A stretch of DNA of 17,125 bases from a virus (Duplodnaviria; Heunggongvirae; Uroviricota; Caudoviricetes), in the IMG/VR virus record IMGVR_UViG_2671180283_000013; one strand, written 5' to 3'. The translations under genes were made by a program, and so were the position numbers. The notes under the pieces are model-generated. The model was not told where the DNA came from. It did no database searches and was given only the letters and a program-made list of their open reading frames with translations. This document shows positions 2,711 through 17,125 of the stretch, in pieces; within the stretch, counting starts at the first letter, position 1, and every line of letters begins with the position of its first letter.

Positions 2711-2768
2711 AAAAACGGCGGCAGAGCAGTCACGGAGTAAAACTGATACCGCCAAACGTCACCAGAAA
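2711..2768 (-). ncRNA. dicF: DicF small RNA (ftsZ translation inhibitor), includes 3' terminator hairpin and U-tail
   Basis: Reverse complement of 2711-2768 reads TTTCTGGTGACGTTTGGCGGTATCAGTTTTACTCCGTGACTGCTCTGCCGCCGTTTTT, which matches the DicF sequence as I remember it. It ends in a GC-rich stem plus T-run and lies between the upstream minus-strand ORFs and dicB, as in the Qin dicB operon. Ends are approximate. Confidence 0.75.
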
Positions 2769-3027: not shown

Positions 3028-3603
3028 TTAAGGATTCATTAAGCAATGTCGCAACCACCAATAAATCCGCTTAAGAACATGAAAATTGATTACTGGTATA
3101 AAGCGCTTACAGTTGTTGGCGCTGCGTTGTTTGTCTTTAATGGAACGTCTTTTTTTGACAGATATCCCGTTGTTCCATTGGGTTTTTTGTCCTCCGGCAT
3201 CTTTTTTATTGGTTTGGGGGAGTGGATTAATCACCCTCTCAAAGTGAGATTTATTGGCCCTGGAGTTTGGACTCGTGGATATAATCGTTCTTCGTGCGCA
3301 CTCGGTATCATCTTCGACATACTTGGTTGTTTCCTGATTGTTACAGGAGTCGTCAAGTTCTTCTGATGTAAAACCGCAAATGGGGCACGTAACGGGAATT
3401 TTGAAAAGCGTTTCTCCGGGTTCCAGAACAAAATTTTCTGCGGTCTGATTTTGCTTCTCATATTTGTGCTCCGCGTCATTGTGAGAGCACATTCTTATTC
3501 TGAGTGCCTGTTTAAACTCACTGAAGCTGAGAGCTTCTTCGCCTTCGGCAAGGCCTTCGAAGTATTCTTCGTAAGCCTTTTCCATGATTGTGTCGAAATC
3601 CAT
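3028..3603 (-). CDS. Acidic small protein, YdfB/YdfC-like by position; only the first 40-85 codons look like real protein, the rest of the open frame is probably antisense read-through
   Basis: ATG at 3603-3601 lies 1 nt after the ydfA-like stop (TGAtATG coupling). N-terminus MDFDTIMEKAYEEYFEGLAEGEEALSFSEFKQALRIRMCSHN is protein-like. No in-frame stop occurs until 3028, so the frame overlaps the plus-strand membrane gene at 3046-3366. The true 3' end is unresolved. Confidence 0.35.
   Translation of the reverse strand: MDFDTIMEKAYEEYFEGLAEGEEALSFSEFKQALRIRMCSHNDAEHKYEKQNQTAENFVLEPGETLFKIPVTCPICGFTSEELDDSCNNQETTKYVEDDTECARRTIISTSPNSRANKSHFERVINPLPQTNKKDAGGQKTQWNNGISVKKRRSIKDKQRSANNCKRFIPVINFHVLKRIYWWLRHCLMNP
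3046..3366 (+). CDS. Small integral membrane protein, 106 aa, embedded in opposite orientation in the early-left operon (same position as sieB in lambda/Rac; family unverified)
   Basis: ATG at 3046 with AAGGA about 11 nt upstream. Three clear hydrophobic helices (YWYKALTVVGAALFVF, VVPLGFLSSGIFFIGLG, CALGIIFDILGCFLIVTGVV). The overlapping minus-strand frame is K/R/N-rich, as expected for the antisense of a membrane-protein gene. Confidence 0.55.
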   Translation: MSQPPINPLKNMKIDYWYKALTVVGAALFVFNGTSFFDRYPVVPLGFLSSGIFFIGLGEWINHPLKVRFIGPGVWTRGYNRSSCALGIIFDILGCFLIVTGVVKFF

Positions 3604-3604
3604 A

Positions 3605-3760
3605 TCACTCACCTGAGTTTCTTTCCAGCCAGCGACGGGCACCATTTTCGGTTTTAAACGTTTTGCTTTTGGTATACGTCATCGCGGTGAACGTGCCGTC
3701 CTGGTTGGGGAACACGCCACATACCAGAGATTCGCTGTTGCCAAGATCGATAGTATCCAT
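3605..3760 (-). CDS. ydfA: YdfA/YdaF-like small protein (DUF1391-type), 51 aa
   Basis: ATG at 3760-3758. Translation MDTIDLGNSESLVCGVFPNQDGTFTAMTYTKSKTFKTENGARRWLERNSGE resembles Qin YdfA / Rac YdaF from memory. First gene downstream of dicA on the same strand. Confidence 0.6.
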   Translation of the reverse strand: MDTIDLGNSESLVCGVFPNQDGTFTAMTYTKSKTFKTENGARRWLERNSGE

Positions 3761-6896: not shown

Positions 6897-8900
6897 ATGA
6901 TTATGAGTGAAAATGATACAACCCCAAAGAAGTCTACAAGCCAGATTAACAAAGCGGTATTCTTTACATCTGCTTTGCTAATTTTCCTTCTTGTCGCCTT
7001 TGCCGCCGTATTCCCGGATGTCGCCGACAAAAATTTTAAACTACTTCAGCAACAAATCTTCACGAATGCCAGCTGGTTCTACATACTTGCTGTGGCCCTG
7101 ATTTTACTGAGCGTCACGTTCCTTGGACTCTCACGTTACGGTGATATAAAGCTGGGCCCAGACCATGCGCAGCCTGATTTCAGCTACCACTCCTGGTTCG
7201 CGATGCTTTTTTCGGCAGGGATGGGGATCGGCCTGATGTTCTTTGGCGTTGCCGAACCTGTGATGCATTATCTTTCGCCACCTGTCGGCACTCCAGAGAC
7301 CGTTGCGGCAGCGAAGGAAGCCATGCGCCTGACGTTCTTCCACTGGGGTCTGCACGCATGGGCAATTTATGCCATCGTGGCGCTGATTCTGGCCTTTTTC
7401 AGTTACCGTCACGGTCTGCCTTTAACGCTGCGTTCTGCGCTCTATCCCATTATCGGCGATCGCATTTACGGGCCTATAGGCCACGCGGTTGATATCTTCG
7501 CCGTGATAGGCACTGTCTTTGGCGTTGCAACATCGCTGGGTTACGGTGTATTGCAGGTGAATGCCGGTTTGAACCATCTTTTCGGCGTGCCCATCAATGA
7601 AACGGTACAGGTCATTTTGATCGTGGTCATCACGGGGTTAGCGACGATTTCGGTGGTGTCCGGCCTGGACAAGGGAATACGCATCCTGTCTGAGCTTAAT
7701 CTGGGCCTGGCGGTGTTGCTCCTGGCGCTGGTCTTGTGCCTGGGTCCCACTGTGCTTCTGCTGAAGTCATTTGTGGAAAATACGGGTGGTTATCTGTCGG
7801 AACTGGTGAGTAAAACGTTCAACCTTTACGCGTATGAACCCAAGTCGAGCAACTGGCTGGGGGGCTGGACATTATTATACTGGGGATGGTGGCTTTCATG
7901 GTCGCCGTTTGTAGGTATGTTCATTGCACGCGTTTCCCGCGGCAGGACAATTCGTGAGTTCGTGACTGGCGTGTTGTTTGTTCCCGCCGGCTTTACGCTC
8001 ATGTGGATGACGGTGTTTGGAAACAGCGCCATCTATCTCATCATGAACCAGGGCGCCACTGACCTCGCCAATACCGTTCAGCAGGATGTTGCGCTTGCCC
8101 TGTTTAATTTCCTGGAGCATTTCCCGTTCTCTTCCGTGCTGTCATTCATTGCAATGGCGATGGTCATCGTCTTCTTTGTAACGTCTGCTGATTCGGGGGC
8201 AATGGTTGTGGATACTCTGGCATCAGGTGGGGTGGCAAACACGCCCGTCTGGCAGCGAATTTTCTGGGCATCGCTCATGGGCGTTGTTGCTATTGCCCTG
8301 CTGATCGCAGGGGGGCTGAGTGCGTTGCAAACCGTAACGATAGCGAGTGCATTGCCCTTCTCAGTTATCTTATTAATATCCATATACGGACTGTTAAAAG
8401 CCCTGCGTCGGGATTTGACCAAGCGTGAAAGCCTTAGCATGGCGACTATTGCTCCTACGGCTGCACGTAACCCAATTCCCTGGCAGAGAAGGTTACGCAA
8501 TATCGCGTATTTGCCGAAGCGCTCTCTTGTGAAACGTTTTATGGACGACATTATCCAACCCGCCATGACGCTGGTTCAGGAGGAACTTAACAAGCAGGGA
8601 ACGATAAGCCACATCAGTGACGCCGCCGAGGATCGTATTCGCCTTGAAGTCGATTTGGGCAACGAGCTGAATTATATATATGAAGTGAGGCTTCGCGGGT
8701 ATAACTCACCGACCTTCGCGCTCGCTGCGCTGGATAATGATGAGCAGCAGAGTGAACAACATCGATATTATCGCGCTGAAGTCTATCTCAAAGAGGGCGG
8801 CCAAAATTATGATGTAATGGGCTGGAATCAGGAACAGCTGATTAATGACATACTGGACCAGTACGAAAAACACCTGCACTTCCTGCATCTGGTTCGTTAA
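6897..8900 (+). CDS. BCCT-family transporter, BetT-like (choline/betaine-type) with long cytoplasmic C-terminal extension, 667 aa
   Basis: Contains the BCCT tryptophan signature WTLLYWGWWLSWSPFVGMFIARVSRGRTIREF and about 12 hydrophobic helices. Collinear with E. coli BetT as I recall it, including a C-terminal tail of about 170 aa; clearly a paralogue, not betT itself. Start could instead be 6903. Confidence 0.9.
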   Translation: MIMSENDTTPKKSTSQINKAVFFTSALLIFLLVAFAAVFPDVADKNFKLLQQQIFTNASWFYILAVALILLSVTFLGLSRYGDIKLGPDHAQPDFSYHSWFAMLFSAGMGIGLMFFGVAEPVMHYLSPPVGTPETVAAAKEAMRLTFFHWGLHAWAIYAIVALILAFFSYRHGLPLTLRSALYPIIGDRIYGPIGHAVDIFAVIGTVFGVATSLGYGVLQVNAGLNHLFGVPINETVQVILIVVITGLATISVVSGLDKGIRILSELNLGLAVLLLALVLCLGPTVLLLKSFVENTGGYLSELVSKTFNLYAYEPKSSNWLGGWTLLYWGWWLSWSPFVGMFIARVSRGRTIREFVTGVLFVPAGFTLMWMTVFGNSAIYLIMNQGATDLANTVQQDVALALFNFLEHFPFSSVLSFIAMAMVIVFFVTSADSGAMVVDTLASGGVANTPVWQRIFWASLMGVVAIALLIAGGLSALQTVTIASALPFSVILLISIYGLLKALRRDLTKRESLSMATIAPTAARNPIPWQRRLRNIAYLPKRSLVKRFMDDIIQPAMTLVQEELNKQGTISHISDAAEDRIRLEVDLGNELNYIYEVRLRGYNSPTFALAALDNDEQQSEQHRYYRAEVYLKEGGQNYDVMGWNQEQLINDILDQYEKHLHFLHLVR

Positions 8901-8907
8901 CAGCAAC

Positions 8908-8936
8908 ATGCCGCCACAGAGGCGGCATTTATTTAT
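8908..8936 (+). terminator. Rho-independent terminator-like hairpin after the transporter gene
   Basis: ATGCCGCC-ACAGA-GGCGGCAT: 8-bp perfect stem, 5-nt loop, followed by TTATTTAT, starting 8 nt after the TAA stop. Confidence 0.6.
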
Positions 8937-8963
8937 CCCGGCTGCAATATGAGGGAATGCAGA

Positions 8964-10241
8964 ATGATTTCACGCTGGAAATGGATGCTGAAGCAGACAT
9001 TTAAAAAACTATGGTTCAGGGCAACGTTATTCGCAATTGTCGCAATAATAACGGCCCTTTTATCAATTCTTTTTAAATCAATGATACCTGAGTCGGTTTC
9101 CGTGAAGGTTGGTGCGGAAGCAGTCGATAACATTCTGAACATACTGGCATCGAGTATGCTGGCAGTGACCACATTTTCGCTGAGCATCATGGTCACAGCC
9201 TACGGTTCAGCCACTACTAATGTGACTCCCAGAGCTACTCGTTTAGTTGTTGAAGACGTCACCACACAAAATGTACTGGCCACCTTCATCGGTTCTTTTC
9301 TCTTCAGTCTGGTAGGGATTATTGCCCTCAATATGGGAGCTTATGGAGAAAGGGGGAGAGTCATTTTATTCATTGTAACACTGGTTGTCATTGCCTTAAT
9401 CCTCATCACATTGCTTCGCTGGATACAGCATTTGACCTCTCTGGGGAGGGTTGGTGAGACAACGGCAAAAGTAGAACAGGCGGCCATCGAAACATTTATT
9501 GCGAGAGCAAGAAATCCCTGTCTCGGCGGATATCCATGGCTTGAGAACAATGAACAGCCGAAAGGAACGGTTGCAGTTTATCCGAAAAAGATTGGCTATG
9601 TTGAATATGTTGATATGGTGAAACTCAGCAAGCTGCTGACCAATGATCCCCGTCATGTATACCTCGTGGCGCAGCCGGGCAGTTTCATACATCCGTCCAC
9701 GCCAGTTTTGTACCTGAGTCAGGGCCAGGAGTCATCAATCAGCACCGATTTACTTGAGACGATTATTGTCTCGGATGTACGTTCATTTGCTCAGGACCCC
9801 CGATTTTGTCTTAGCGTCATGGCCGAAATAGCCTGCCGAGCCCTTTCCCCCGCAGTGAACGATCCTGGAACCGCCATTGATGTCATTGGCAGAGGTGTAC
9901 GTATACTTTCCGCTTACGCGCAGAATAAATCTGATGAAATAGAAGTGAAATATCCTTCTGTACATGTTGCACCACTTCAGAATAACGATCTACTTGAAGA
10001 CTTTTTCTCACCTGTTGCGCGCGATGGTGCCAGTATGAGGGAAATTCAGATAAGGGTACTTAAAGGACTGTCGATGCTGAGTAAGGGTTGGCCTGGAATT
10101 TTTGCTGAAGCCGCACAAACCCTAGCATTTGAAACATTAGAGCATGCTACTCGTGCTGACCATATAGATTCTGACAGATATCTAATAAAATCAATTTATT
10201 ATAATTTATTTAGTGGCGAAGATTCTAATAAAAAACCATAG
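8964..10241 (+). CDS. Membrane protein with about 5 N-terminal TM helices and a roughly 250-aa soluble C-terminal domain, possibly DUF2254-type; 425 aa
   Basis: ATG at 8964 is preceded by GAGGGA with 7 nt spacer; the alternative ATG at 8949 has no SD. Hydrophobic N-terminal third. C-terminal domain carries a motif (RALSPAVNDPGTAIDVIGRG) that I associate from memory with DUF2254 proteins. Confidence 0.8.
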   Translation: MISRWKWMLKQTFKKLWFRATLFAIVAIITALLSILFKSMIPESVSVKVGAEAVDNILNILASSMLAVTTFSLSIMVTAYGSATTNVTPRATRLVVEDVTTQNVLATFIGSFLFSLVGIIALNMGAYGERGRVILFIVTLVVIALILITLLRWIQHLTSLGRVGETTAKVEQAAIETFIARARNPCLGGYPWLENNEQPKGTVAVYPKKIGYVEYVDMVKLSKLLTNDPRHVYLVAQPGSFIHPSTPVLYLSQGQESSISTDLLETIIVSDVRSFAQDPRFCLSVMAEIACRALSPAVNDPGTAIDVIGRGVRILSAYAQNKSDEIEVKYPSVHVAPLQNNDLLEDFFSPVARDGASMREIQIRVLKGLSMLSKGWPGIFAEAAQTLAFETLEHATRADHIDSDRYLIKSIYYNLFSGEDSNKKP

Positions 10242-10644
10242 TTGCGGAGCAAGCGATACGGTTGTTGGCAAGTCAAGGGCAAAGCATTCGCGTGAGAGTG
10301 GGCGTCTGCTTTGTGCCATAAGCGGAAGTATTTAACAACTATCAGTGTTGTTCAACAGATAAAGGGGCACTTGATTTTTTCTGTTCTCAGGAAATGATAA
10401 AAGCGCGTCGGTTCAAGCCTGCTTAACGGGAGTTTGTTAATCCTGTTGCCGTGACGTTTTGACACCATTATGATGGGGAGACACTTAATGTATGAAGGTT
10501 CCGCCACTTATACCTGTCCAACAACTGCCTCGGGTGTTTCTTTGTATGAATAAGTGGTAATGAGTAGTGAATCGCTAACAGTCACCCGAACAATCGGTGC
10601 CTGCAATTAATTCTATATTCTAAACGAGGGGGAGATTATTACAC

Positions 10645-11625
10645 ATGAAATTTAAGGACAAGAACCTTAAGGCTCTCGCGGAATGTATCATAGGAGATAA
10701 TAAGGCATTTCTGTATCGTTCAAGCAGTCACATCACTGAATTTTTCCAGGACTGCGGCATGGATGTTACTCATGACGGATCCACTCGGTGGAAATGGACG
10801 GCCCAGAGGCTTGAAGAACTTCTTTATGAGCCACAGTCAAAGCCACATACTTTGCCGGAAAGGTTTGTTCATGTGCTCAGAACTTTAATGTTAAAAGAAG
10901 ATGCAATGGATGACGATCCAGGAAGATTAAAGGCGCTTGAAGAACTGAACAAGCCTTTGATGCGGGAAGGCTATGAGGCATTCTATGGTGACGATCGCCT
11001 TTTGTATATACGCCATACCGATACCAAAACGGTTTCAGTCAGTAATAACCCTCATCGGCCCTTAACGCCTCACGAAGTAGAATGCAGAAGGTTACTGACC
11101 GCGTTTCTTGATACCTGCTCAGAAGATGAGTTAATAGAAGATATTCTCCTTCCTTTATTCCGGCAACTTGGTTTTCACCGGATAACAGCAGTGGGACATA
11201 AAGATAAAGCGCTGGAATACGGGAAAGACATCTGGATGAAGTTCACACTGCCAACTCAGCATGTTCTTTATTTCGGCATTCAGGCAAAAAAAGGTAAGTT
11301 GGATGCGTCCGGTGCCAGCAAATCTACGAATTCAAACGTGGCAGAAATCTTCAACCAGGTACTGATGATGCTTGGCCATGAAATATTTGACCCAGAAACA
11401 AATAGAAAGGTGCTGGTAGATCATGCCTTTATCGTTGCTGGCGGAGAAATTACTAAACAGGCGAGGAACTGGCTGGGCGGGAAACTTGATGCCAGCAAAA
11501 GAAGCCAGATAATATTTATGGACCGGGAAGACATTCTTAATTTATATACTGTAAGTAATGTACCTCTGCCAACAGGTGCTCTCATCTCTGATGATGCCGT
11601 TAAGAACGATGATATTCCTTTCTAA
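10645..11625 (+). CDS. Orphan protein with a C-terminal Mrr-like restriction-endonuclease motif (PD-(D/E)xK-type) and an unassigned N-terminal domain of about 150 aa; 326 aa
   Basis: ATG at 10645 with GAGGGGGAG upstream. Motif pattern ...GKDIWMKF-x13-YFGIQAKKGK... (D-x17-QxK) followed by HAFIVAGGEIT, resembling the Mrr catalytic-domain signature as I recall it. The gene looks more AT-rich than the backbone by eye. Confidence 0.75.
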   Translation: MKFKDKNLKALAECIIGDNKAFLYRSSSHITEFFQDCGMDVTHDGSTRWKWTAQRLEELLYEPQSKPHTLPERFVHVLRTLMLKEDAMDDDPGRLKALEELNKPLMREGYEAFYGDDRLLYIRHTDTKTVSVSNNPHRPLTPHEVECRRLLTAFLDTCSEDELIEDILLPLFRQLGFHRITAVGHKDKALEYGKDIWMKFTLPTQHVLYFGIQAKKGKLDASGASKSTNSNVAEIFNQVLMMLGHEIFDPETNRKVLVDHAFIVAGGEITKQARNWLGGKLDASKRSQIIFMDREDILNLYTVSNVPLPTGALISDDAVKNDDIPF

Positions 11626-12142: not shown

Positions 12143-12353
12143 TTTTATATTGGCGAGGTGACGGGAGTTAAGTAGAATTGCTGCGGGTGCTTGAGGCTAT
12201 CTGCCTCAGGCATGAACACCAAAGGCAGATAGAGAAAAGCCCCAGTTAACATTACGCGTCCTGCAAGACGTTTAACATTAATCTGAGGCTCAATCTATGA
12301 ACGGCAAATCTAGGTTAGCCTCTTACGTGCCGAAAGGCAAGGAGAAGCAGGCT

Positions 12354-12509
12354 ATGAAGCAGCAAAAGGCGATGTTAATCGCCCTGATCGTCATCTGTTT
12401 AACCGTCATAGTGACGACACTGGTAACGAGGAAAGACCTCTGCGAGGTACGAATCCGAACCGGCCAGACGGAGGTCGCTGTCTTCACAGCTTACGAACCT
12501 GAGGAGTAA
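12354..12509 (+). CDS. hokD: Hok/Gef-family type I toxin, HokD(RelF)-like, 51 aa
   Basis: Translation MKQQKAMLIALIVICLTVIVTTLVTRKDLCEVRIRTGQTEVAVFTAYEPEE is near-identical to HokD from memory. SD AGGAG lies 9 nt upstream. The track ORF from 12297 is an in-frame upstream extension. Confidence 0.85.
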   Translation: MKQQKAMLIALIVICLTVIVTTLVTRKDLCEVRIRTGQTEVAVFTAYEPEE

Positions 12510-14378: not shown

Positions 14379-14744
14379 ATGACTGAACGCATAGAATTTG
14401 TTTTGCCTTACCCGCCAACGGTGAATACTTACTGGCGACGTCGTGGCAGCACATATTTTGTATCAAAAGTCGGTGAGCGTTATCGCCGTGATGTGGCACT
14501 AATTGTTCGCCAGCAGCGGTTGAAATTAAACCTGTCCGGAAGGCTGGCAATAAAAATTATTGCAGAGCCACCGGATAAGCGCCGTCGTGACCTGGACAAT
14601 ATCCTGAAGGCACCACTGGATGCACTGACGCATGCGGGGCTGCTCATAGACGACGAGCAGTTTGATGAAATCAATATTGTGCGCGGTCAGCTTGTTCCTG
14701 GTGGGCGGTTGGGGATAAAAATCACAGAACTGGGGTGCGCATGA
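14379..14744 (+). CDS. rusA: RusA-family Holliday junction resolvase, 121 aa
   Basis: ATG directly abuts the upstream TAA. Contains the RusA hallmark PDKRRRDLDN and ALTHAGLLIDDEQ, collinear with E. coli RusA as recalled. Confidence 0.85.
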   Translation: MTERIEFVLPYPPTVNTYWRRRGSTYFVSKVGERYRRDVALIVRQQRLKLNLSGRLAIKIIAEPPDKRRRDLDNILKAPLDALTHAGLLIDDEQFDEINIVRGQLVPGGRLGIKITELGCA

Positions 14745-15430
14745 ATAACCAGTATTTACAGTTTGTGCGTGAGCAGCTCATTATCGCCACCGCTGATTTG
14801 AGTGGGGCAACAAAAGGTCAGCTTGAAGCCTGGCAGGAGAATGCCATGTTCGATACAGGGCGTTACAGGCGTAAAAAAATCCGGTACCGCGATGAAGTGA
14901 CTGGAAAAATGATAACGCGGGATAATCCCCCAATCCCGGGAAAGCAATCGCTGGCGAAGGGGACGTCAATTCCTCTGGTCAGTCCGATTGAGTTTTCGAC
15001 ATCATCGTGGCGGCGGGCTGTTCTGTCTCTTGAAGAACATCATAAAGCCTGGTTGTTGTGGTGTTACAGCGGGAGTATTTGTTGGGAATATCAGATCGCG
15101 ATAACACAGTGGGCGTGGAATGAATTTAATACTCAATCCGGTACCAGAAAAATTGCAGGGAAAACGCAGGAACGCCTGAAAAAATTAATCTGGCTGGCGG
15201 CGCAGGCAGTAAAAGCAGAACTTTTTGGTGGGGAAGGTTATGAATACAAGGAGCTGGCATTACTGGTGGGAGTGACAACTAAAAACTGGTCCAAAACATT
15301 TACTCGTCACTGGGTTGCAATGAAACACATTTTTCACCGACTGGATAGTGAGGCTTTATTGTTTGTAATGAGAACGCGTTCAAAACAAAAGGCGGCATTT
15401 TCAAAGCAAAGTGTTGCAAAAGTAGATTGA
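14741..15430 (+). CDS. Late-gene antiterminator Q-like protein (QuuQ-like), about 229 aa
   Basis: ATG at 14741 overlaps the rusA stop as ATGA; the track start at 14735 is a GTG two codons upstream. Assignment rests on position: downstream of rusA and followed by a strong terminator and tRNAs, as in lambdoid/Stx phages. Confidence 0.6.
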   Translation: MNNQYLQFVREQLIIATADLSGATKGQLEAWQENAMFDTGRYRRKKIRYRDEVTGKMITRDNPPIPGKQSLAKGTSIPLVSPIEFSTSSWRRAVLSLEEHHKAWLLWCYSGSICWEYQIAITQWAWNEFNTQSGTRKIAGKTQERLKKLIWLAAQAVKAELFGGEGYEYKELALLVGVTTKNWSKTFTRHWVAMKHIFHRLDSEALLFVMRTRSKQKAAFSKQSVAKVD

Positions 15431-15493
15431 AAGGCATATATTTCATGCAAATCTGATATTTTGCCGATTTTGTACGTGATGGCAAAAGCAAAC

Positions 15494-15521
15494 AAAACCC
15501 GCCCACAAGCGGGTTTTTTTG
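15494..15521 (+). terminator. Strong rho-independent terminator downstream of Q (tR'-like)
   Basis: AAAACCCGC-CCACAA-GCGGGTTTT: 9-bp perfect stem followed by a T-run. Confidence 0.8.
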
Positions 15522-15640
15522 TGCCACTTATCTCGGATAGACATGGTGAATGCGCTGGTGGAGGAAGCAAGGGTAATTTTTAACCAGGTGATTCTTGAAT
15601 GCTTGCAACATTGATTTCGTAACGTTATTATCCTGCGCCC

Positions 15641-15716
15641 GGCCCTTTAGCTCAGTGGTGAGAGCGAGCGACTCATAATCGCCAGGCCGCTGGTTCAAAT
15701 CCAGCAAGGGCCACCA
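15641..15716 (+). tRNA. tRNA with CAU anticodon, most like tRNA-Ile2 (lysidine type) rather than elongator Met
   Basis: Cloverleaf folded by hand: acceptor GGCCCTT/AAGGGCC, D-arm GCTCAGTGGTGAGAGC, anticodon loop CTCATAA, T-arm with TTCAAAT, 3' ACCA encoded. Anticodon arm (GCGACTCATAATCGC) resembles E. coli ileX as I recall it. Confidence 0.85.
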
Positions 15717-15723
15717 TCACATA

Positions 15724-15800
15724 CCGCCATTAGCTCATCGGGATAGAACGCCAGCCTTCGAAGCTGGTTTCGCGGGGTTCGAGTCTCCGATGGCGGTCCA
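15724..15800 (+). tRNA. tRNA-Arg (anticodon UCG)
   Basis: Anticodon stem CCAGC/GCTGG with loop CTTCGAA, T-loop TTCGAGT, acceptor CCGCCAT/ATGGCGG, CCA encoded. One mismatch in the D-stem. Confidence 0.75.
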
Positions 15801-15813
15801 TTATCGGTATTCT

Positions 15814-15890
15814 GCGTTTTTAGCTCAGCCGGACAGAGCAATTGCCTTCTAAGCAATCGGTCACTGGTTCGAACCCAGTACAACGCACCA
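15814..15890 (+). tRNA. tRNA-Arg (anticodon UCU)
   Basis: D-arm GCTCAGCCGGACAGAGC, anticodon stem ATTGC/GCAAT with loop CTTCTAA, T-loop TTCGAAC, CCA encoded. One acceptor-stem mismatch. Confidence 0.8.
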
Positions 15891-16059
15891 CACTTATTTT
15901 CCCTCGCTCGCTTTTGCGGACCTTTTTTGTATCCGCACCACGCCCGGCGCATACCAACCACAGAGCCTTTCGGGGGGAGCTTATGGAGTGGTCAGTGTGA
16001 CTTTCTCTGTGGGCAGATCGCTCCCGGGCGTTGGCTCACCCACCCAAAGGAACGTCACG

Positions 16060-16492
16060 ATGTTTGGTATTTTTGGTAAAAAAAGCCCGCAGAGCGGCAA
16101 CGGAAATTAGAAAGTTTGAAAAACGCGATCTGGCACAGGTGGTGATTAACGCCGCATACCTGGTGGCCTGTGCAGATGGTGAATGTGAGGCTTCCTAGAA
16201 AGCGAAGATCGAACAGGTACTGCGTAATCAGCCTGCGCTGTACGCGTTTACGTCAGAAATTAATGCGATTAGCGCAACCATTATCGGTCAGCTGGATACG
16301 AACTTTAAAACTGGTCGTCGTGCGGCGTTACGTGAGATCGAGGATGTGAAACACGATACGCGTGAAGCGGAAGATGTGCTGGATGTGGCGGTGGCCATTG
16401 CGGAGGCAGACGGCGAAATTGAGCCGGAAGAGCGCAAGGTGCTGGAAGAGATTGCCGGTGTTCTGGGTCTTCGTCTGGAGAATTACCTGTGA
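16060..16492 (+). pseudogene. TerB-like (tellurite-resistance TerB-family) gene disrupted by a +1 frameshift near 16105-16112 and an in-frame TAG at 16196-16198
   Basis: ATG at 16060 with AAAGGAA upstream gives MFGIFGKKSPQSGNGN then TAG. The +1 frame continues ...KFEKRDLAQVVINAAYLVACADGECEAS, then TAG, then KAKIEQVLRNQ...REAEDVLDVAVAIAEADGEIEPEERKVLEEIAGVLGLRLENYL. The two acidic D-G-E repeats are TerB-like (from memory). Confidence 0.5.
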
Positions 16493-16656
16493 CGGTAAAA
16501 CTGCGCCTGACTGTGGCTGCACTCCTGCTGTTTCTGGTGGTGATGGTGGATTTCACCAGCAGAATCATGTCGGTGCTGGCGGATGGGGTGCTGGTCTGCG
16601 GCATTATGGTATTGCTGTGGCCGGTGATAAAAAGAAACAGCCTGCATAATGCTTGA
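16489..16656 (+). CDS. Candidate small membrane protein, 55 aa (MTVKLRLTVAALLLFLVVMVDFTSRIMSVLADGVLVCGIMVLLWPVIKRNSLHNA)
   Basis: GTG at 16489 overlaps the TerB-like stop (GTGA). Strongly hydrophobic. No clear SD. Below the track length cutoff. Confidence 0.4.
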   Translation: MTVKLRLTVAALLLFLVVMVDFTSRIMSVLADGVLVCGIMVLLWPVIKRNSLHNA

Positions 16657-16857
16657 TTTTTTTGTTTGCTGTTTATTAAAAACACTTCTGCATGGTGAAT
16701 CCCCCTGTGCGGTGGGGCAATCAGCAAGAAGGAATATGGGGTAATCGCGGATTCAGGTGCTGATACTGAATTCACCGGGAGGCACCCGGCACCATGCTTT
16801 GCCACAAAAGTGTTATTTCTGTTTTTCTCAAACTATCATCGTTATCCCTTTATTTTC

Positions 16858-16884
16858 GGCTGCGCATGGCGCGGCCTTTTTTTT
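16858..16884 (+). terminator. Rho-independent terminator
   Basis: GGCTGCGC-ATG-GCGCGGCC: 8-bp stem including one G-U pair, followed by TTTTTTTT. Confidence 0.75.
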
Positions 16885-16970
16885 ACGACCAGCCACTGGC
16901 AGATGGTCATCCTGTGATTTGATTCCGCTTCCGGCTTTTTAACTCTGTTCCTCTACACGGGAGAAATTCG

Positions 16971-17125
16971 ATGTCGATTAAACATTATGATGTTGTCAGG
17001 GCGGCGTCGCCGTCAGACCTTGCGGAAAAGCTGACACACAAACTGAAAGAGGGCTGGCAGCCATACGGCGGACCGGTTGCCATTACGCCGTACACACTGA
17101 TGCAGGCGGTGGCTATTGAAGGAGA
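16971..17125 (+). CDS. Hypothetical protein, 5' part only (MSIKHYDVVRAASPSDLAEKLTHKLKEGWQPYGGPVAITPYTLMQAVAIEG...), runs off the right edge
   Basis: ATG at 16971 with GGGAGA 8 nt upstream. Frame is open to the window end. Confidence 0.6.
   Translation, partial: MSIKHYDVVRAASPSDLAEKLTHKLKEGWQPYGGPVAITPYTLMQAVAIEG

Follow-up and report, generated by a model that had tools for sequence, protein, structure and literature searches.

Why does a lambdoid prophage carry three tRNA genes in a row behind its antiterminator gene, and is such a row tied to Shiga toxin, beside whose genes it is known? In the stretch of DNA analysed here (17,125 nt, hereafter the window), a three-tRNA cluster had been predicted at 15641-15890, downstream of Q, and had been likened to the ileZ-argN-argO array found upstream of stx genes in Shiga-toxin phages. 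The most probable answer, to which we assign a probability of roughly 0.85, is that the cluster is a copy of the known ileZ-argN-argO cassette of lambdoid Escherichia prophages, Stx-type and non-Stx alike, which stands at the head of the late operon and supplies decoders of rare codons.

Three tRNA genes, all on the plus strand, were found by ARAGORN within 15641-15890, and they are the only tRNA matches in the window. The same three loci were matched independently by the Rfam family RF00005, whose gathering score is 29. They comprise ileZ (tRNA-Ile2, anticodon CAU) at 15641-15716, with 72.5 bits and an E-value of 1.7e-14, argN (tRNA-Arg, anticodon UCG) at 15724-15800, with 44.4 bits and 9.6e-07, and argO (tRNA-Arg, anticodon UCU) at 15814-15890, with 63.3 bits and 5.7e-12. 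Since the ARAGORN coordinates and the Rfam bit scores and E-values agree, a chance origin of these matches is excluded. The 3' CCA is encoded in all three genes, which are separated by spacers of 7 nt and then 13 nt. The boundaries coincide exactly with those of the original prediction, the folds were accepted with Rfam in agreement, and the anticodons are the ones that had been claimed (Ile-CAU, Arg-UCG and Arg-UCU), with no others assigned by the tools.

The CAU tRNA was labelled 'Met' by ARAGORN because the program cannot separate tRNA-Ile2 from tRNA-Met. It aligns over its full length with ileX of K-12 and carries C4:G69, C5:G68, C29:G41, A37, A38 and A73; among these, C4:G69, C5:G68 and A73 are common to both genes, as is the anticodon loop, and an A27.C43 stands where ileX has G27.U43. 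The methionine genes metT and metU have U4:A69 and A5:U68 instead, and are unlike the CAU tRNA across the acceptor, anticodon and T stems. The pairs 4:69 and 5:68 have been reported as the lysidine identity elements of E. coli TilS (PMC11947777), the bacterial isoleucine determinants include A73, C4:G69, C29:G41, A37 and A38, and the methionine determinants include U4:A69 with A5:U68 (PMC9976931). An elongator tRNA-Met, as the ARAGORN label had it, is ruled out by the acceptor-stem pairs and by the overall likeness to ileX. Because of this likeness, together with C4:G69 and C5:G68, the gene is identified, as far as its sequence can tell, as a tRNA-Ile2 for AUA; the identical sequence is annotated as tRNA-Ile by PGAP. 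After modification of the anticodon by TilS to lysidine-AU, such a tRNA would be charged with isoleucine and would read AUA.

The features of a bacterial tRNA-Arg, namely A20, C35, G36 or U36 and an accepted discriminator base, are found in both of the other genes. With the D loop AUCGGGAUA and the anticodon UCG, argN has A20, C35 and G36; with the D loop AGCCGGACA and the anticodon UCU, argO has A20, C35 and U36. In both, A20 occupies the same position as in argU and argQ of K-12, and the discriminator is A73 in argO and U73 in argN. The main arginine determinants in bacteria are A20, C35 and U36 or G36 (PMC9976931), and the tabulated bacterial arginine discriminators are A/G73 and also U73 (PMC9976931, Table 1). 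By its anticodon, argN would be expected to read CGA and perhaps CGG, and argO to read AGA and, weakly, AGG, duplicating argU. K-12 decodes CGA and CGG only by inosine (ICG) and CCG tRNAs. We know of no K-12 counterpart of argN, the UCU and ACG genes being those looked up, and, to our knowledge, a U34 reader of CGA is absent from core E. coli.

The window is part of a lambdoid prophage of the DicF/Qin type. Its first features are an exonuclease gene, ydfD and dicB, followed by the DicF RNA (2716-2767, minus strand), by dicA, dicC and the replication genes, and then by a cargo block in which Pfam recognised a BCCT transporter and a DUF2254 protein. This cargo lies beside the nin region; the idea that it is a defence system and might in that way explain the tRNAs was rejected: PADLOC returned nothing, and the two Pfam assignments are those just given. 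Between the cargo block and Q lie hokD/sok, rem, DUF968 and rusA. The antiterminator gene itself (229 aa, 14741-15430, plus strand) matches PF06323 (Phage_antiter_Q) with an E-value of 9.5e-93, and in E. coli genomes the annotation of the identical region reads 'bacteriophage antitermination protein Q'; the upstream neighbour of the cluster is thus Q, as predicted. On the other side, a TerB-family pseudogene occupies 16064-16492 (plus strand; Pfam TerB, matched downstream of the stop with an E-value of 9.1e-08), broken by a change of GAG to TAG at 16196, codon 45, which bears out the disrupted TerB-like gene that had been noticed there. Strain CD45 has the same nonsense mutation, and in the O157:H7 strain TR01 the gene is unbroken. 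DUF3927 and then an STnc100-type RNA element follow the pseudogene.

Identity of TR01 and CD45 to the window is 100% at 15400-16100 and 99.4-99.8% when the comparison is extended to 15400-17125, and their gene order (Q, tRNAs, TerB, DUF3927, SASA esterase) is the same. The window ends where the gene for the SASA-family esterase begins in these relatives, in which this gene and the lysis genes come next. The cassette is accordingly placed between the Q/pR'-tR' region and the late (lysis) genes, the lysis side being read from the relatives. The early region of the window, with its BCCT transporter and DUF2254 cargo, differs from the TR01/CD45 type, and because the cargo differs, coverage of the window does not exceed 65% in any complete E. 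coli genome. No stx gene lies between the cassette and the end of the window at 17125, where the next genes are the TerB pseudogene and DUF3927, and no toxin gene is annotated in the identical regions of O157 TR01 and CD45. The earlier remark that no toxin follows is therefore correct, in that stxA and stxB are not directly downstream and the TerB pseudogene is found instead.

The frequency of the arrangement was assessed by counting matches to at least 80% of a 296-bp query (15600-15895, promoter plus trio) in complete E. coli genomes. The query was present in 2527 of 5426 such genomes; a single genome had as many as 13 matching places, and 323 records contained a copy with at least 99% identity to the query. 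Fully identical copies came, among the matches listed, from cattle, human and chicken isolates, and dog and giant-panda strains were also among the matches listed in a 701-bp search, in whose top matches the tRNAs lie between Q and TerB with no toxin. In addition, non-Stx prophages of O157:H7 contain copies that match the trio at 100% identity. Given this frequency and the Q and TerB flanks, the cassette is a general module of E. coli lambdoid prophages and not a property of toxin phages, and its presence is no marker of the latter. At up to 13 places in one genome, it could noticeably change the host's supply of decoders for AUA, AGA and CGA.

Species-representative genomes were also scanned with a 25-nt pattern of the ileZ anticodon arm, which proved too generic: it gave 45 loci, about two-thirds of them from unrelated phyla and presumably those organisms' own tRNA-Ile2 genes. 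The loci examined further were those of Escherichia, Shigella, Serratia and Lelliottia and one on a Collinsella-labelled contig. Arrays led by ileZ were found in E. coli, Shigella flexneri, E. albertii and another Escherichia species, and at the Serratia and Lelliottia loci a CAU tRNA also matches, where it stands alone or has other neighbours. Pattern matches in Methanobrevibacter and in a Clostridiales MAG were set aside as unrelated tRNA clusters. The Collinsella-labelled contig carries the same tRNA trio.

The feature is thus already known and very common, and it matters little as a discovery. The identical sequence has been annotated by NCBI PGAP in hundreds of genomes, and the idea of codon supply has reportedly been attached to these genes since the 933W and O157:H7 genomes were first sequenced. 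A literature search gave no relevant paper on ileZ, argN/argO or the 933W tRNA genes with rare codons, so that the history of the gene names is drawn from database annotation.

Two sets of candidate transcription signals precede the tRNA genes. The first begins with a candidate late promoter pR' (TTGCAA-17-TATATT, 9/12 matches in a consensus scan) at 15414-15442 on the plus strand, where it overlaps the stop codon of Q. A candidate tR' terminator, AAAACCCGC-CCACAA-GCGGGTTTT followed by a T-run, lies at 15494-15523 (plus strand) and would end a leader RNA of about 75 nt. The region 15449-15530 of the leader folds at -24.3 kcal/mol (z = -3.0), a stability that 0 of 200 shuffles reached, and a terminator scan puts the hairpin at 15494-15523 on the minus strand. 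The lambdoid pR'/tR' layout, with a short hairpin-terminated leader after Q, has been described for Stx phages (PMC7547250), and it is from their position that 15414-15442 and 15494-15523 are read as the putative pR' and tR'. A search for a curated sRNA family over the pR'-tR' leader gave none above threshold, with weak, sub-threshold similarity to isrK/isrJ only.

The second set belongs to the cassette itself. A sigma-70 promoter-like site (TTGCAA-17-TATTAT, consensus scan) was located at 15603-15631 on the plus strand, ending 9 nt short of the first tRNA; the G+C-rich stretch CCTGCGCCC (15632-15640, plus strand) runs from it to the 5' end of ileZ. The segment 15603-15640 is 95-100% identical in Stx2a_WGPS6, PPompW and Evi, and in Stx2a_WGPS6 and Evi the Q/pR' modules that precede it can be aligned only to 39-69%. 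By dRNA-seq, a tRNA promoter and transcription start have been found between tR' and stx2AB in an Stx2a phage (PMC7547250), and a 'pS tRNA promoter' has been named in a comparison of O157 (PMC2858043). This conservation and the published homologous tRNA promoter support the view that the TTGCAA-17-TATTAT motif is a real promoter. Since the conserved promoter-like site is the cassette's own, production of the tRNAs is probably not confined to the induced state but takes place in the lysogen as well. In the lysogen, the cassette would be transcribed alone from this site; after induction, Q-modified polymerase reading through tR' would transcribe it as well, and RNase P together with 3' processing would free the three tRNAs. 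Two minus-strand ORFs that overlap the tRNA genes (15528-15707 and 15695-15961) were taken as mechanical ORFs and not as genes. A closing hairpin with a T-run follows at 15905-15928 (plus strand), weakened by the changes 15905 G to C and 15920 G to A. In Stx2a_WGPS6, PPompW and Evi the sequence at this place is GGCTCGC-TTTT-GCGGGCC-TTTTTT; the hairpin of the window folds weakly (z = -1.6) and was not called by the terminator scan.

The two stem-breaking changes in this hairpin are among the observations that would be expected if the tRNA genes were neutral passengers, that is, hitch-hiking remnants in a decaying and probably defective prophage. In the same direction, the D stem of the argN allele of the window contains a C11.A24 mismatch, A24 being found in 1 of 14 homologues, that of the window, and the acceptor stem of the argO allele contains a U6.C67 mismatch. 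A standard 6:67 pair is present in 6 of the 7 argO homologues compared (G6:C67, and C6:G67 in K-12 argU), and U6.C67 costs about 7 bits (63.3 bits, against 68-70 bits for G6 alleles). Furthermore, the adjacent TerB gene carries a nonsense mutation, the prophage of an O157 relative has decayed (frameshifted terminase, truncated capsid gene), and some related arrays are annotated tRNA-pseudo or tRNA-OTHER. Single stem mismatches, however, are usually tolerated in tRNAs. All three tRNAs score far above the Rfam threshold, and the argN allele, at 44.4 bits, is about equal to the Stx2a phage copy at 43.0 bits.

The family to which these alleles belong also argues against passive decay. In an alignment of 10 argN-scaffold genes, 95.7% of cloverleaf cells form standard pairs, against 28-55% in a control with the partners slid; compensatory double changes occur at five pairs, and the covariation score was reached by 0 of 500 shuffles. 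In addition, ileZ is 96-99% identical across all prophage arrays compared, with unalignable flanks. The covariation in the argN family and the near-invariance of ileZ support purifying selection, which would act on tRNA structure. Promoter and ileZ are near-invariant across mosaic contexts, and copies at least 99% identical recur in the 323 records mentioned above, with identical ones coming from diverse hosts. Taken with these observations, the neutral reading appears improbable.

Codons were counted in the genes of the window, in 57 core genes of K-12 (19,724 codons) and in late genes of the two relatives that lie closest. Per 1000 codons, the K-12 core genes contain 2.7 ATA, 1.1 AGA and 2.9 CGA (sum 6.7), against 13.8, 7.0 and 5.9 (sum 26.7) in the window genes overall. 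The corresponding values are 10.2, 6.0 and 7.4 (sum 23.5) in the window backbone, 21.1, 9.1 and 2.8 (sum 33.0) in the window cargo, 6.7, 16.3 and 6.7 (sum 29.6) in the late-proximal genes of CD45, the closest relative, and 5.6, 9.4 and 5.3 (sum 20.3) in the O157 late genes. Together, the three codons are 3-5 times commoner in prophage genes than in K-12 core genes, an elevation that the original prediction had made a test of its codon argument. For ATA and AGA, every prophage set differs from the K-12 sample, with p ranging from 0.02 (ATA, late genes) to 1e-16 (Fisher). The enrichment of CGA is weaker (p = 8e-04 to 0.04, outside the cargo), and in the cargo CGA is not enriched (2.8 vs 2.9 per 1000 in the K-12 core). 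AGG, ACA and GGA are likewise enriched in prophage genes and have no matching tRNA in the array of the window; members of sister arrays, Thr-UGU and Gly-UCC, match those other A-ending rare codons. The toxin gene stx2A has 15 ATA codons in 319.

These enrichments fit a codon-supply role for the whole array family, as a correlation only. The earlier suggestion that the tRNAs compensate for the codon usage of AT-rich cargo or late genes agrees with the enrichment of ATA and AGA, but not with the level of CGA in the cargo; moreover, the enrichment is unspecific, and AT-richness is true of only part of the cargo, since the BCCT gene has about 52-53% GC. More decoders for A-ending codons would make it easier to translate phage genes and other genes acquired horizontally. 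Several observations weigh against the codon-supply cassette as the best explanation, namely the argN C11.A24 and argO U6.C67 mismatches, the weakened hairpin, the 44.4 bits and U73 of argN, the unspecific nature of the codon enrichment, the decay of the surrounding prophage, and the tRNA-pseudo or tRNA-OTHER labels of some related arrays.

The same genes could be of use in another way if prophage tRNAs mainly served as spares, replacing host tRNAs cut by colicin D or by anticodon nucleases. Colicin D cleaves tRNA-Arg, and two of the three tRNAs are tRNA-Arg; the body of argN (C1:G72, U73) is unlike any K-12 tRNA-Arg, and related arrays swap members freely, all of which is circumstantial. The anticodon loop of argO, CUUCUAA, is nevertheless identical to that of K-12 argU, so that nothing in it suggests changes made to escape a nuclease; the two genes also share A20, and their stems differ widely. 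Array members, furthermore, read A-ending codons, most of which core genes seldom use and prophage genes use more often, and no nuclease or defence gene was found nearby by PADLOC. A role mainly as spares is highly improbable in the face of these points.

The freedom with which members are exchanged is seen in the other ileZ-led prophage arrays of E. coli and Shigella flexneri, which have the order Ile-Arg(UCU)-Thr(UGU)-Gly(UCC) or Ile-'UUU'-Thr-Gly. The codons read by members of the related arrays end in A (AUA, CGA, AGA, ACA and GGA). The argN scaffold (C1:G72, U73) carries the anticodon UCG in the window and in Stx phages and UCU in the four-gene arrays of E. coli and Shigella; in PPompW, Evi and IPCEC31 it carries a 'UUU' loop with C33. 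One might see in this scaffold a prophage-specific tRNA chassis whose anticodon has been re-tuned between arrays, diversifying decoding and adding a U34 reader of CGA, but we regard this as a tentative and rather unlikely proposal. The form with UUU and C33 may be no more than a dead allele, and a scaffold with three anticodon states would seem to be only a mildly new point.

The extent of the homology with Stx2 phages defines the cassette as a unit. Stx2-phage matches found by megablast cover only query positions 169-534, corresponding to window positions 15568-15933, with 91-92.6% identity over these 366 nt. Stx2 phage records name the genes ileZ, argN and argO and place them directly upstream of stx2A/stx2B; we take these Stx2-converting phages to be of the 933W/Sp5 type. 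The likeness to the Shiga-toxin phage arrangement originally proposed is thus one of true homology to the stx2-linked array, whereas any toxin-specific meaning falls away, the cassette being common in non-Stx lambdoid prophages. Promoter and ileZ stand behind three types of Q, with 229 aa in the window, 162 aa in Stx2a and 273 aa in Evi and IPCEC31, and the cassette has four different downstream neighbours (TerB, stx2AB, ISEc20, or the lysis genes directly). Since the homology is confined to about 15568-15933 whatever the Q or the cargo, the cassette (plus strand, delimited by megablast and by the segment identities given below) is a self-contained, exchangeable unit of putative promoter, tRNA genes and terminator.

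The same confinement, with three Q types upstream and four neighbours downstream, would suit a cassette that acts mainly as a recombination anchor and as punctuation of the transcript: conserved tRNA DNA between Q and the lysis genes would promote the exchange of Q and of cargo such as stx, and tRNA processing would cut the late transcript. Such effects are compatible with a decoding role. As the main function, however, we give them only the slightest credence, for mosaic boundaries are expected of any conserved module in lambdoid phages, and the cloverleaf covariation and the conserved identity elements are left unexplained. Altogether, the codon-supply cassette has better support than any of the three other readings, be it a relic, spares against nucleases or a recombination anchor alone.

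Comparison with known arrays shows what the cassette keeps and what it exchanges. The sister arrays have the same ileZ leader as the window, and their second gene, built on the argN scaffold, is homologous; the array of IPCEC31 also agrees with the window in its promoter-like site and in lying after Q. They differ in membership, in gene number and in spacers (1-3 nt), and their second gene has UCU or UUU and not UCG. Against Stx2a_WGPS6 (NC_049945), identity is 39% in the pR'/tR' region, rises to 95% in the promoter, 99% in ileZ, 100% in both spacers, 91% in argN, 95% in argO and 93% in 15891-15933, and falls to 44% beyond 15933. The Q types differ (162 aa in Stx2a_WGPS6, against the 229-aa PF06323 Q of the window), the cassette is followed by stx2AB in the one and by the TerB pseudogene and DUF3927 in the other, and the allele of the window is set apart by argN G24A, by argO G6U and G73A and by its weakened closing hairpin. 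The anticodon order, the spacers of 7 and 13 nt and the promoter-like site are the same in both, and in Stx2a_WGPS6, too, Q/tR' precede the cassette and the genes for the SASA esterase and lysis come after it.

In homologous prophage arrays, the tRNA body that corresponds to argN (tRNA-Arg, anticodon UCG; 15724-15800) is marked by a C1:G72 pair together with U73 or G73, and homologues of this type were located at L009:4304-4379, L010:4223-4299, L003:21966-22042, L020:7194-7270 and L016:7394-7470 of the comparison loci. Across these arrays, the argN-type body carries three anticodons, namely UCG, UCU and "UUU". The loop of the "UUU" form reads CCUUUAA, with C33 replacing the universal U33, and PGAP either skips this form or annotates it as tRNA-Lys or tRNA-OTHER. 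The variants may reflect anticodon switching on one argN-type scaffold, or else a dead allele.

The tRNA cassette is closed by a hairpin with a T-run (15905-15928, plus strand), an element that is also found in the Stx2a, PPompW and Evi phages. Compared with these, the window allele carries two stem-breaking substitutions; therefore, with the hairpin weakened, transcription from the tRNA promoter may read on into the TerB-family pseudogene (16064-16492, plus strand). This gene is inactivated by a single GAG-to-TAG change at 16196 (codon 45), a nonsense allele shared with E. coli CD45, and is unbroken in O157:H7 TR01. In addition, a short plus-strand leader spans 15443-15523, from the pR'-like promoter to the tR'-like terminator, and folds into two hairpins (z = -3.0). 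The leader resembles the prophage sRNAs isrK and isrJ only weakly, at scores below the threshold; judging by its position, it could be an RNA of the StxS/IsrK kind, formed as a by-product when transcription from the late promoter terminates.

A cargo block (6897-11625, plus strand) lies between the replication genes and hokD, and owing to this block at most 65% of the window is covered by any one complete E. coli genome. Its plus-strand genes encode a BCCT betaine/carnitine/choline transporter (667 aa) and a DUF2254 membrane protein (430 aa), as well as a 326-aa protein without a match in Pfam and PADLOC searches; ATA is very common in the block (21 per 1000 codons). Furthermore, the DicF antisense RNA (2716-2767, minus strand; 72.5 bits) and the sok antitoxin RNA (12185-12359, plus strand; 111.7 bits), which belongs to a hokD module, are standard Qin-type prophage features. 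Between DicF and dicA, the window has a 205-aa ORF (3028-3645, minus strand), likewise without a Pfam or PADLOC match, whereas related prophages carry ydfA, ydfB and ydfC there.

An STnc100 sRNA was matched through Rfam at 16661-16833 (plus strand; 100.8 bits); the matched sequence lacks some internal parts of the model, and a terminator-like hairpin lies beside it (16858-16876). In the window, the element follows DUF3927 and precedes the point at which relatives begin a SASA esterase gene; in the Stx2a phage it lies immediately 3' of stx2B (L008:5731-5942), and in Escherichia sp. MOD1 it adjoins a match to AgvB (anti-GcvB; L037:757-1025).
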